The notes under the pieces were generated by a model. It ran no database searches, was not told the origin of the DNA, and saw only the letters and a program-made list of their open reading frames with translations. From Antedon mediterranea (Eukaryota > Animalia > Echinodermata): a stretch of DNA of 64,000 nt. The translations under genes and the position numbers were made by a program. Where the stretch lies: positions 25,293,648 through 25,357,647 of the forward strand of contig NC_092673.1 of the NCBI RefSeq assembly GCF_964355755.1, read 5' to 3'. Every line of letters starts with the position of its first letter. Within the stretch, counting starts at the first letter, position 1. Positions 23,301 through 62,300 of this stretch are shown here, one piece after another.

Positions 23301-26300
23301 TGCTGTGTTTGTTCATCCAGAACATAATTGTTTGCGTCACGCATCAACGGTCGATAATCCGTGTGGAAGAATTGTTCATATGGTACCTTAATGACATTCA
23401 AGAAGGAATAAAAAAATTTAGTCTTTATTCTTTATGTTGTTTATAAATAATCATAAAGAATAAAGACTAAATCTTTTTAGTTGATTTGATTAACAGTAAA
23501 CAATTAAATAGTAGGAATAACAGTAAATAATTGTTGATAAAACAGTATACTAATTACTATACCTAAAAAAGGTGGCCTCCAACACACATTCCAAACTGAT
23601 TCGTGTACTGTATGTATATGCTAATTAACTTTATGAGTGGGGGGGGGGGGCCGAGCGGTTAAGACAGTGGAACCATAATCCATAGCATTATGACAAGAGG
23701 CTCAATCGATTCATGGTTCTAATGGTAGAATGAGTCTTCTCAGATAAGGATTATAAACCATAGGTCCAGTGTACACACAAAGCCGATGTGCACTTTAAAG
23801 GACCTAATGTTGTACATCTTTCGAGACAAGTAGGGGGTTACCAAAGCATACCTCCGTACACAACCACTGTCGGGGACAGACCAAATAGCGCAGAACCGAT
23901 GCGTGCGGTAGCCCTAAAGCTTGGTTCCCATTAGAACGTAACGCAAGGACGTAAACGCAACGCAAGCGTTTTAATCAATGACAAGCAAAGTTATAGACAG
24001 TAGCAATCACAAGCGAATAAGCCATCGCTTGTGATTGGTCAATTCACTTGCGTTGCGTTACGTCCTTGCATTGCGTCGCAAGTGGGAACCACGCTTTAGG
24101 AAAGAAGCATGTACTTGAAGTACGTAACATTTAAGTCCACATTATTTGTGGAATGGGCTTTATACAGTATATACAATTAACATTATTATATACAGTAGTT
24201 ATGAATATGATAAAATATTATTTTCCTACCTTCTGTGAAGCATGGTTAGTTTTAGGCTCTTTGGCAACATGATTGGTTTTGGGCTTTTTAGGATTGGACT
24301 GTTCAGTTGGTTTTCTACATACATCTGACATTTTACTTGAAGTTGCAGCGAATTGATTGGACGAATGTGGTATATCATTCCCATCATTCACTTTACTGGT
24401 GCTTGAAATAGATAAATTAGTCTTTCGTTTCTTACCTGGTTGTGAGCATGAAGCCTTTTCTAAATGTTCACATTTTTTTCTTTTTGCGGTAGATTGTGAA
24501 TCTTGTAATTGAGCACAATTTGTAACATTACTCATTCTATCCAAACTTTGTTCACAATTTGTTTTCCGAGACCCGCTTTGGGTTTCAGTTTTCTGATTTT
24601 GATCCTCTGAACATTTTTCCGTGATTACCGCAGCCATTTCAAGATTTGTAGATTGGTTACGATTTGATTTGTTCATCGTGGGTGTATCTTGTATCAATAT
24701 CATGCTATCCTGTGTCCAATCTTCCAACAAAGTATGTTTAGCTTGGCTGCTCTTTAAACATACTTCGTGGTTTTTGTCGTTACCTGAAACATCTTGCCGT
24801 GAAACGGTCGAACAAGTTCTCACACAATCTGGTAAATGGCTGTCAAGCGTGAAAGATGCTGAACCAAAGATGTTAGATTCTGAAATGAGAAGAAATTCCA
24901 TTTGTTGACACTGAAATTTGGTTTGTTTCAAAGACAGTGTTTCGGATTTCGAACATTGACGTTGGAGGCATGAATGTTTTGTTTTTTGGTTAAGAATTGT
25001 CTGCATGAAATCACCCTTATTATCTAATAGTAGAGAGTTTACTTATTCCTGACAGGGAGTACTACATACGTTGTTATAACACTTTTAAAGTAGTGTTACT
25101 GTTCTTGACTATTTGAATCTTAATCATTTTGGTTAGGCCATTTTAGTTAAGTGTTTTAAACGGCTAATTGGCCATAAGCCTGTAGTTTTTACTGTAATTT
25201 GAACGAAGCCCAGGTACGTGTTTTTTTTTTTCATTTCATTTCATTTCATTTATTTCAATATCATTATCGCAGCCTTAGCTGAATTACAAAGATATTTACA
25301 TTTTCTCAATATTAAAATTTGTATAAAAGTATAAAACCAATGATAATTATATATAAAAACGCGATTCCACGCGCTTGACCCTACGTGCGCGCGCGTTTTT
25401 ATTTGCTAATATTTTTACCCTTGACCTGAAGTTAACGTGTAGTGAATTTCATAAATATGTGATAATGAATTATGGATATATGATTGATAATGTGATTTCA
25501 CAAAATGGCGTATACGTGACGTCACGGATGAGTGATTACGCTGAAAAGCTTATTATGGCTAAGTTAAAGTATTTGAAAGACATTGTGAAATTTTTGTGAT
25601 CATTGTTGTTCAACTTTTTGAGATAATTGCTAAACAAAAAGTGTACAGAAAGAATAATAACAACTAGACATGAAACTCGTCACTTTGACGAGTAATAGTT
25701 ATCCGCACGACAAACGCCACGTGCACGTCATACGTTGGAATATTGCACACAGAAAAAGATTATGGCATTATGACCTGAACTGAAGAATATGATATGTTGT
25801 TATTGCTGAATTCTGTTATTTTGTGTCATACATAGTATAATCTGTATACATATATCACATACAGTGTAGAATAGTGAAATTACGGGTCCCGCCATTTATT
25901 CCAATTTTTAACATGTTGATGGTTTAAAAATGAAATGCGAAGGTAGCAATTTCGGAAGGAAATTATCTCAGCAACAACATATTAACGTGTAGAGTAAATT
26001 TGAAAACGTGAAATATTGATGCGCCCTCTTTTAAATGTAATGAACTATGACGCAAAAGATGAAAATACGACTTTTTAAAGTCAAGTGGCCATATGATGAC
26101 TTCACAACATCCGATTGGTAAAATGTTAACATCATTTTGTATCTACAATCCAATAGCTTCTATAAAATGTTTTAATCATGATTATCACGTTTTATTCTGA
26201 CTAGCTATAACAGATTGAAATTTACTATAAAGATGAAAATAAGTGACCCAGGTTATTTACATTTTTAGACATGATGACGTCATAAAAATTAAAATATTTT

Positions 26301-59300: not shown

Positions 59301-62300
59301 TTAATACAAATTTAAAAAAATTTAAATCCGTAAAATACAGATGCGCGCTCTTTTAAATGTGATGAACTATGACGCAAAATATGAAAATACGACTTTTTGT
59401 ATTCAACTGGCCATATGATGACGTCACAACATCTGATTGGCAAAATATTCACATGAATTTGTATCTACAATCCAATAGCTTCCAGAAAACGTTTTAATCA
59501 TGATGATCACTTTTTATTCTGACGAGCTATAACAGATTGAAATTTACTGTAAAGATGAAAATAGGTGACCCACGTTATTTAAATTTTTAGAAATGATGAC
59601 GTTATAAAAATTAAAATATTTTTAACTCATGCGAAAGATAGTTGATTGACCTAGACAGTATTAAAATATCTGAGGAAATGGAATACGTATAAGCGATATG
59701 CGCTCTATTTAATCTAATGAGGAATAGCGAAACAGTCAAAAATCCAATATTTTACATTCGTGTGGCCATACGATGACGTCATAACATCCGAGGGGTAAAG
59801 ATTCTGCATGAATTCATATCTACAACATATCTGCTTACATATTAAATTAAAAAAATTGGGGGTAACGGTTGATCCCGAGGAGCTATAATAGATTCAAAGT
59901 AGGCATAATTTTGACAATATTTTGTCACTTTTGCAACTAAAACGCATGCAAATTGCCTAAATCAACGTGTTCGTATGACGTCATTTTAATTTGAAATGAT
60001 GTCAATCTTTTTTAAAATGACTAGGAAAGGCTGGAAAATTACAATTCAAGAGAAAAAAACATGATTTTCGTACTCCGTGCGCACAATACGCGTACATTTT
60101 TTCGCGCGCACGGTAATTTTTGACATGCTCAAAATGTCATGATCAGCGCAGAAAGTTGAAATTAAAGTTAGAAATTAATTTTGCGCATTTTGAAACTTCA
60201 AATGCGCGTGCGCGCGTACAGTAACTTCTTGTAAAACATGCCATTTTTAATCCATAGAAAGTTTGCCCTTGATATGACTTAAATTTTCACCAAGTGTCAA
60301 TACAAAATGACTTTTATTTTTTAATCTATGATCAATCATTGAAATTCATAAAATCGCGCGTAAGTCACGTTGCGCAACTCTGACGTCATTCAAAATATGG
60401 AGGTGCACAACTTCAGGTAAATGTCCATATAATGACAAAGTTATACAAAAGATATATTCACAAGCAATAGGGGATATGCTGCTCACAAAATTCCGGGAAA
60501 GAAAGAAGAATAAAGATGAAAATGATTTTTACAATCACAAATTGCGGATAATCAAAAAAAAAAAAAAAAAAAAAAAAAAAAGATCCTGACAATAACAAGT
60601 AACAGGACGATTACAAGGAGTTATCCGCTACTAAGCGGATAACTAATAACATAGAAAAAGAAAAAAAAAAAAAAAAAAATCCTGACAATAACAAGGGGTT
60701 ATCCGCCAAGTGCGGATAACCAAAAAAAAAAGTAACAGGACGATTAGATGGAGTTATCCGCTACTAAGCGGATAACTAATAACAAAGAAGATGAAAAAGA
60801 TATTTACAATTACAATCACACAAAAAAAGATGATGAAACAGGACAGTTACAAATACAAATTATTACTAATAATAACAATAATAAAGATTTTGTACAATAA
60901 CAATAGGTGATCATTTTATTCTAAATGATCACCTAAAAAAAACACCTAAAAAAGCACCAATAAGAATCGCATAGCTGTACTGGGTGATATATACTGATAT
61001 ATAGTGTTGCTTGGCTGCCTAGGCCTAGCGTAACATCAAAGTGCGTGAGGACTTTCAAAACTGCTATTTATCAAAATTGACCTGGCATTTTAGTAAATTA
61101 CTTTTAGTAAATTACTTTCAATAAATCTATAATTATATTATAATCATGAATCATTCATGATTCAAATGCAAAATGTGCAAAATAAATAAAAAAACTATAC
61201 TCATTTCGTAGTTACAAATATGACTGGTGATACTCGTCAACACGAATACGCTTTACGAATATGAAATGGGGATCAGTTCAAAAGTTTTACAAATGTGTGA
61301 CGTATCTGTTTTGGTTATCGTATTCGAAAGGTTGCGAAACATCCCTATTGTCTGGATTAGACAGGCTTTACTGAAGTAAATGTAGTAGGTTACATTACAA
61401 TCACATTTTTTTATGAAAATTATTTCAAATTTTTTTTTTAAATCCAAGCTTCAATTTATCATATAAAACATCTCACTAAAGAGTCCTTGAAAAAGATTAG
61501 CTTTATACCTTTTTGACTTGGGTTAAGTGAGGAATCACTGGCACTTATATCGAATGAGTCGCCGTCCTCAGAGTTGCACTCGATGATGGAGTTCGAGCAA
61601 ATCAAGTCAGGAGATTCATCAGCGTATTCTTCTTCATCCTCAATCAACTCAAGCTTTGAATAAATAACAAAAAATGTAGATTTTTAATAATCTGTCTCAG
61701 AAATAAAATGTTATTCTACTAGGACTAAAACTACAGTTTTGTATCATATACTCGGCATACAATGCAATACACCTACATACAGTATACAATGATTGTAGTT
61801 TATTATTACTTGCAACAATTCATTGATCGGAGAGCTGCATATATTTTATTTCAGAGAATGTCAGTCTGCTCTCTATCCTTGTTACCCAAAAGCTAAATTT
61901 TTAACAAACTATTACCTGCAAGTCTTCCTTGTAAATTATTACAATATTTTCCAGTTTTAAACTATCATCTGCCAATTCATGCTGTATATCATCTGCCAAT
62001 TCATGCTGCATATAATCTGCCAGTTCATGCTGTATATTGTCTGTATCAACTGCCACTTCACGTAGTGTATTGTCTGCCAATTCATGTGGTGTATCGTCTG
62101 CCAATTCATGTGGTGCATCATCTGCCAATTCATGTTTTGTATCATCTGCCAATTCATGTTGCATATCGTCTGCCAATTCTGGTGTATCGTCTGCCAATTC
62201 ATGTTGTGTATCGTCTGATGTTTTATGTCTGTTATCTGCCGAACATCGTTGAATATTATATGCTTTTTTATCAGTTATCTCAAGAAGTCTGCGTTTGTTT

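Follow-up and report, generated by a model that had tools for sequence, protein, structure and literature searches.

A 35-kb stack of probable non-autonomous Helentrons in Antedon mediterranea, very likely grown by repeated self-insertion

Introduction

Can a satellite-like array be built by an element that keeps transposing into its own earlier copies, rather than by unequal exchange? The question is raised by a 64,000-nucleotide stretch of AT-rich eukaryotic DNA from the echinoderm Antedon mediterranea (contig NC_092673.1, positions 25,293,648 to 25,357,647 of the forward strand), referred to here as the window and numbered from its first letter, in which an apparent 1.5-kb tandem array has spaced left ends and right ends piled in clusters. 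A sequence-only reading of the window had proposed that the units are Helentron/Helitron2 rolling-circle elements nested in one another like brackets. The computational analysis reported here indicates that one family accounts for the stack, with 19 non-coding copies that are likely non-autonomous Helentrons (HINE/HLE2), and that the stack very probably grew by repeated same-orientation self-insertion. The target was likely a T-rich tract located near the 5' end of earlier copies, 50-70 bases in from that end.

Results and discussion

Anatomy of the element and composition of the array

A regular-expression scan of the window located 19 left ends, or heads, from 25663 to 57768, all on a single strand, which recovers every left end of the sequence-only reading (head coordinates given here are that reading's minus 1). 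The copies are numbered H1 to H19 in order of their heads. According to their subterminal inverted repeat (subTIR), 13 heads are of type A, five of type B and one of type C. Eighteen right ends, or tails, are recognisable; the closing arm GCGGATAAC/T is present in 17 of them, and the remaining one is truncated and ends at 57767. Heads and paired tails bound the array at 25663-60778. All 50 occurrences of the subTIR 9-mer, counted on both strands, fall within these limits; mononucleotide-shuffled versions of the window contain 0.245 each on average. The proposed 35-kb element stack thus stands as far as its 19 copies are concerned, with the reservation that about 6.3 kb of the span belongs to three unrelated inserts.

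On the minus strand, the order within a copy is 5' subTIR with its inverted repeat, poly-T/TTC tract, body, 3' subTIR, 9-bp stem and terminal CTAGT. The bodies are ~1.2-1.9 kb long and non-coding; the longest stop-free run was 62-107 amino acids in the five intact copies examined (5/5). The type A subTIR, TAGTTATCCGC, is 11 bp long and present at both ends, types B and C have the 10-bp core GGTTATCCGC, and the variants of head and tail covary. Asymmetric subTIRs of ~11-15 bp characterise HINE and non-autonomous HLE2 elements. DNA folding of the 5' hairpin, formed by the inverted repeat that adjoins the 5' subTIR, yielded -11.6 kcal/mol for type A and -16.3 kcal/mol for type B. The 3' stem-loop, with its 9-bp stem, follows the 3' subTIR and stands 11 nucleotides from the end of the element in type A. 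The designation of heads as 3' ends and tails as 5' ends is made by analogy to the HINE layout. Displaced tails measure 50-91 bp as found and 50-68 bp once the poly-A is collapsed, compared with the earlier figure of 50-70 bp. The tract is interrupted as had been described, although its supposed motif, the exact 17-mer gaaagaaagaagaataa, occurs only four times, and the tract differs between subfamilies.

Sites of insertion

Thirteen of the 19 heads break the tract of the preceding copy and five abut a tail without a spacer, in keeping with the earlier claim for every left end except that of H1, which lies in the tract-like end of a diverged relative. Seven of the 13 in-tract insertions are at or within the poly-A run and five interrupt AAGA|ATAA, the remaining one (H5) being atypical. 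On the plus strand, 18 of 19 heads and 18/18 tails are flanked by an A, equivalent to T|T on the minus strand. Target-site duplications are lacking at 18 of the 19 junctions, and the rejoined tracts match intact ones. Together with the subTIRs, the 5' hairpin, the 3' stem-loop, the microsatellite and the lack of coding capacity, these junctions give the copies the structural features of HINE and non-autonomous HLE2 elements, the class to which the sequence-only reading had assigned them.

All 13 insertions into an element fall within one ~40-bp tract, which offers ~3.5% of the AA/TT sites of the element and 15-33% of its A6 windows (H5, H9 and H13, copies with a short poly-A). The other window DNA scanned (28 kb, containing 160 A6 windows) holds zero copies of the family. 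This pattern suggests a bias of the family for its own tract, at one locus that was chosen for being an array. The five abutting joints (34636/34637, 39365/39366, 49223/49224, 54490/54491 and 57767/57768) always unite copies of the same subTIR type (5/5; chance probability ~0.04, noticed post hoc), whereas nested pairs mix types.

Order of heads and displaced tails

Seven copies (H5, H6, H9, H13, H16, H18 and H19) close on their own tail, while 12 are interrupted and 11 tails are displaced. When one head is allowed to be tailless, last-in-first-out closure matches all 11 displaced tails by type, an outcome that 4 of the 165 type orders share (P=0.024). Pairing in first-in-first-out order matches only 5-6 of 11. 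Type alone would permit H11, H14, H15 or H17 as the tailless head. Judged from sequence, H11 (44539) is the best choice, as it differs from the intact H5 at 17 of 1523 bases and yet a second H5-like tail is absent. Both nests singled out by the sequence-only reading were reproduced: heads B34752, A36139 and A37663 are closed by tails A39243, A39293 and B39365, and heads A46067 and B47577 by tails B49157 and A49223. The same reading had assigned two variant tails to near-identical copies, and the variant, ACAAGCAGTT, indeed occurs exactly twice, in the tails that the pairing assigns to H14 (49224) and H17 (54491). These two copies show 14 differences in 1796 aligned bases (0.8%).

The interrupted tract carries further information. 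At 11/11 places the register (poly-A versus AAGA|ATAA) at which the host stops is that at which its assigned tail resumes, an agreement reached within type A by 1440 of 40320 permutations (P=0.036). A tract-continuity score against intact copies gave P=0.0005 for all 11 tails and P=0.034 within type A, and body-tail similarity is correlated (rho 0.37, P=0.003). In silico excision of inner copies rebuilt tract-plus-tail ends that resemble those of intact copies, as had been predicted. The maximum depth is nine (H1>H2>H3>H10>H11>H14>H15>H17>H18). The nesting proposed earlier was therefore deep as described, at nine levels in the present parse rather than about eight.

Evidence from public sequencing runs

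Thirteen public runs from five studies share part of the stretch, two of them at least half of its words. Contigs rather than reads were compared, for four of the 13 runs (X1, X9 and X10 are cited below) and for the region 56200-61200. In X9 and X10, contig depth summed over the element ranges from tens of thousands to millions, which indicates that the family is highly repeated. Among the matches listed for X9 and X10, which stem from two studies, 6 of 12 join a B-type tract to a B or C head, running through CATAG, GATAG, GAAAG or AA at a depth of 1388-4541; the lowest-depth pieces listed have a depth of 51 (X10) and 203 (X9). These joints are absent from the window, which points to tract insertions at other loci, probably in many copies; their depth could also stem from amplified arrays, and X9 may share the source of the window. 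In X9 there is an empty form of the H18 site (joint 56287->57520). The same run contains an A tail that continues into the tract of the other Helentron-like family that borders the array on its right (joint 57652->60874), and related families may therefore share a target. A B head in X1 is preceded by a loose end that finishes in tract-like sequence (four contigs, agreement 0.64). Scanning of metagenomes with a 25-base head pattern returned zero loci. A looser 18-base pattern returned 36, which were rejected as chance matches: none has the full hairpin (0/36), and blastn matches, found for 6/36, span just 22-28 bp.

Weighing of self-insertion against other origins

Several results weigh against self-insertion. 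Strict last-in-first-out order matches just 7 of 11 tails by type (P=0.66), and the closure claimed earlier holds in full only for a stack that is imperfectly balanced, with one tailless copy. The tail at 57575-57649 scores 197 on H11 compared with 150 on its assigned partner H15. Comparison of tail sequence with body within a type gave zero signal beyond the A/B type itself (P=0.44). The classes of tract register were defined after the data were seen. One junction, that of H5, is T|A, and extra events are required by the orphan piece (34739-34751), the chimeric tail (60555-60645) and the surplus fragments (60779-60860). These loose pieces could be explained by two deletions together with lost outer heads, or by composite moves. 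As the locus was chosen as an array, its insertion density overstates the bias. The joints in public runs are known from 12 matches listed, beside 410 further ones, with neither a denominator nor a single-copy depth, and none of the listed contigs spans the stretch. An autonomous Rep-helicase partner was found neither in the window nor by two metagenome scans.

Similarity among the copies bears on the possibility that a head-body unit was amplified in tandem, by unequal exchange or as a rolling-circle concatemer, with the tails multiplied separately by slippage. Such an origin is very unlikely, even though it would explain the appearance of a 1.5-kb array, the adjacent pair H3/H4 (93.5%), the sole adjacent pair that are mutual best matches, and the common type of all five abutting pairs (5/5), whose junction is as expected from a circle. 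Mean identity is 79.4% for adjacent and 81.0% for non-adjacent copies (P=0.85 for adjacent higher; 18 of 19 copies, the 102-bp H6 being omitted), so the excess of likeness among neighbours that the sequence-only reading had named beforehand as contradicting it is not seen, and the closest pairs, H5/H11 and H14/H17, are non-adjacent. Four of the abutting pairs are only 86-90% identical (H6 is too short for comparison), which rules out a concatemer for them. The alternating A, B and C types are mirrored among the tails, and tandem amplification is thereby largely refuted; growth by repeated transposition, as proposed earlier, agrees with both the mirrored types and the lack of neighbour similarity. 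Satellite DNA formed by unequal exchange would consist of complete head-to-tail monomers with neighbours most alike, whereas 12 of the 19 units here have no end in place. Reciprocal chimeras from circle recombination were not seen either, H17 equalling H14 at 98-100% in seven of eight alignment windows.

A less radical alternative retains self-insertion and replaces one event per copy at this site by composite moves, in which blocks nested elsewhere arrived together. These could be produced by read-through of an inner 3' end, yielding two heads and one tail, or by a start at an outer 5' end, yielding one head and several tails; the latter route is depicted in Fig. 7 of PMC5148889. Composite moves would account without deletions for the lost tail of H11 and for the surplus tails at 60555-60860. 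As an origin for part of the stack they appear unlikely: no multi-copy block repeats in the window, the neighbours of H14/H17 and H5/H11 differ on both sides, and slippage between near-identical 50-75-bp tails accounts for the loss as well. Finally, dispersed copies may have been stitched together by the assembler through their common A-rich tract. The junctions do sit in low-complexity tracts and, as noted, the locus is not spanned by a listed contig. Every copy nevertheless differs from the others, mis-joins would not reproduce subTIR type and tract register in reverse at 11/11 places, and like joints occur at high depth in runs from two other studies, which renders an assembly artefact highly improbable.

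Layout of the stack

The features below lie on the minus strand unless indicated otherwise. At the left, the likely outermost host (H0) is a diverged relative-like sequence that ends in a purine tract (25300-25662, drawn by eye with an approximate left limit); blastn against the family gave zero matches for it at E<1e-3. H1 (A, 25663-27184) comprises a 3' end, body and interrupted tract. H2 (B, 27185-28695) lies within the H1 tract, H3 (A, 28696-30119), which has an internal deletion and a 292-bp duplication, within the H2 tract at AAGA|ATAA, and H4 (A, 30120-32966), likewise with the duplication, within the H3 poly-A. The intact, innermost H5 (A, 32967-34569) is followed by the displaced 5' end of H4 (A, 34570-34636), by H6 (A, 34637-34738), which is internally deleted to 102 bp and abuts a tail, and by an orphan 13-bp piece of B/C-type tract (34739-34751; compare the H18 tract). 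The next nest contains H7 (B, 34752-36138), H8 (A, 36139-37662) within the H7 tract and the intact, innermost H9 (A, 37663-39243), and closes with the displaced 5' ends of H8 (A, 39244-39293) and H7 (B, 39294-39365).

H10 (B, 39366-44538) abuts the H7 5' end. Within its tract lies H11 (A, 44539-46066), whose own 5' end is missing, and within the tract of H11 lies H12 (A, 46067-47576); the intact, innermost H13 (B, 47577-49157) precedes the displaced 5' end of H12 (A, 49158-49223). H14 (A, 49224-51113; 292-bp duplication) abuts this end and hosts H15 (A, 51114-52631) in its poly-A. The intact, innermost H16 (A, 52632-54490) and H17 (A, 54491-56289), which abuts the H16 5' end, both carry the duplication, and H18 (C, 56290-57514) is intact and innermost at depth nine. 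Four displaced 5' ends are piled at 57515-57767, namely those of H17 (57515-57574), H15 (57575-57649), H14 (57650-57704) and H10 (57705-57767, hairpin truncated). H19 (B, 57768-60554), with a degenerate tail of its own, abuts the H10 5' end. A further pile at 60555-60778 holds the 5' ends of H3 (60555-60645, chimeric with a B/C-type fragment), H2 (60646-60722) and H1 (60723-60778). Two surplus tail fragments without a head to pair, one B-like and one A-like, occupy 60779-60860; blastn identity is 89.7% to B tails and 87% to the tail at 49164.

The 292-bp duplication is present in five A copies (H3, H4, H14, H16 and H17; 29518-30104, 32367-32930, 50517-51098, 53828-54390 and 55695-56265). Its break is at the tract start, with AAA microhomology; the first half most resembles H9/H1 (0.86-0.89), whereas H8 is closest to the second half (0.91-0.97). 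It possibly arose from a nested insertion in which the inner copy then lost its 3' end, and unequal recombination between neighbours fits too.

Foreign inserts and surroundings

Two of the unrelated inserts are non-autonomous elements resembling canonical Helitrons, each with a 5' TC, a 3' hairpin plus CTAG and A/T flanks, located in H4 (30291-31725, minus strand) and in H19 (58094-59300, plus strand). They differ from each other, and the second is high-copy in the compared runs. The third, in H10, is a 3.65-kb terminal inverted repeat (TIR) element without assigned strand (40427-44075), whose inverted ends read TAGACCAGTCG and which shows a 3-bp duplication (TGT). It has no open reading frame (ORF) longer than 137 amino acids and may itself carry further inserts; its ends presumably resemble those of Academ.

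To the right of the array, another Helentron-like family, a possible outermost host, is represented on the minus strand by its tract and hairpin end (60861-60940). This family end, with its AGGTGATCAT hairpin arms and A-rich tract, extends over 60861-61200, and its second end was not found in the window. Minus-strand exons of a bromodomain gene are present at 14995-25042, including a match to Pfam PF00439 at 18448-18753. The ORF at 23039-23431 has no PDB or Pfam match; its motifs are reminiscent of BRWD/PHIP proteins. The minus-strand ORFs at 61901-63429, acidic and rich in repeats, may be part of the bromodomain gene or of another. A short element at 62429-63010 with 16-bp repeats in inverted arrangement at both ends resembles a miniature inverted-repeat transposable element, and several fragments of long interspersed nuclear elements (LINEs), with endonuclease domains and reverse-transcriptase-like ORFs, are found at 921-9366.

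Relation to known systems

HINE elements are laid out as a 5' subTIR, an adjacent inverted repeat, a microsatellite, a 3' subTIR and a stem-loop (oyster Cg_HINE, PMC7492417; PMC4067079), and T|T insertion is the HLE2 rule (PMC11417382). HINE/DINE-1 and the array have in common the subTIR/hairpin layout, the lack of coding sequence, T|T insertion without duplication and a T-rich preference (PMC4067079, PMC7492417). They differ in the microsatellite, which is poly-T/TTC here as opposed to GTCY in HINE and here is also the insertion site of the family, and in the 3' end, CTAGT, which is like that of canonical Helitrons and unlike that of HINE. Self-nested stacks are not described for HINE/DINE-1 in the excerpts of PMC4067079 and PMC7492417. 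The canonical Helitron class itself (HLE1; 5' TC, A|T insertion, no terminal inverted repeats) was rejected, as the copies start with TAG or TGG, insert at T|T and have subTIRs; the 3' hairpin and CTAG are the sole common feature.

The closest precedent is the Helitron2 FoHeli of Fusarium, for which repeated 5' ends of 31-85 nucleotides were observed, self-insertion near the 5' end was proposed and three copies may represent double insertion into a 5' end (Chellapan et al., PMC5148889); up to five 5' termini occur in Fusarium Helitron2 elements (PMC13342296). The short piled 5' ends (31-85 nucleotides in FoHeli, 50-91 here) and the target (TNAT|T in FoHeli, TTAT|T at the commonest site here) compare well (PMC5148889). 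Nesting in FoHeli was mostly deduced from several 5' ends with one 3' end, with one nested example (PMC5148889), whereas the present stack, in an animal, retains its bodies, 3' ends and displaced 5' ends in position, with 19 copies and a depth of nine. Clustered, nested copies of one family are likewise formed by the Zepp LINE of Coccomyxa, in clusters of 1.5-42.3 kb; Zepp differs in being a retrotransposon of other chemistry with one cluster per chromosome (PMC3446292). In Drosophila, tandem arrays are seeded by double insertions that give tandem dimers, so that site preference and not unequal exchange seeds the array (PMC5932611), and the five abutments described here fit such a process. Arrays of truncated Helitrons have been attributed to rolling-circle amplification (Xiong 2016, as summarised in PMC12628747). 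The units of such dimers and truncated arrays lie side by side or have one common 3' end; those of the present stack are mostly nested, with 3' ends of their own. Nested Helitron insertion has also been invoked for satellite capture (PMC13085455), and shuffled Helitron loci of oyster have been reviewed (PMC12628747).

A deep, intact HLE2 stack was not found described in the literature searched, most subscription journals lying outside its scope. The novelty suggested by the sequence-only reading is narrowed accordingly by the Fusarium work (PMC5148889, PMC13342296): published work already covers the class of element, its T-rich targets and self-insertion, and what is new is a deep stack that is still intact and in order and whose internal target is defined.

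Proposed mechanism

The chemistry of Helitron copying is established. By this chemistry, a Rep-helicase supplied in trans by an autonomous partner elsewhere would copy single elements, peeling a strand from the 5' hairpin through the 3' hairpin and CTAGT, which would then be joined at T|T. Each insert would displace the 5' end of its host and supply a fresh tract, thereby renewing the target. Several subfamilies (69-99% alike) may have been active together, with rapid stacking. The pace is suggested by the 0.8% divergence of H14 and H17, though H17 lies two levels within H14; these levels (H14-H15-H17) likely formed in a short time, unless conversion homogenised the copies. The five abutments may be second insertions at a junction that remained T|T, and missing or surplus tails could result from later small deletions or composite moves.

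As to how the tract is found, the evidence is close to even, with a slight lean towards tethering to the resident 5' hairpin plus T-rich sequence over the tract sequence alone, given the fixed 50-68-nucleotide distance and the single orientation. By extension, one may tentatively suppose that the microsatellite behind the 5' hairpin of HINE/DINE-1 elements is a built-in landing pad, located by a transposase on the resident's 5' end; this generalisation is possible, though doubtful at present.

Implications

The stack displays in place the intermediate that had been proposed for multi-terminus Helitron2 elements, with a readable order of events and an exact internal target, and renders Helentron target choice testable, as tract alone versus tract plus resident hairpin. 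It also illustrates a route from a dispersed element to a 35-kb array without unequal exchange, and serves as a warning that such stacks are liable to be annotated as tandem repeats. Should the landing-pad proposal be correct, self-nesting would be a general means by which animal genomes acquire satellite-like arrays, stacked 5' ends and the internal tandem repeats of HINE, and the 292-bp duplication would be such an internal repeat caught at birth.

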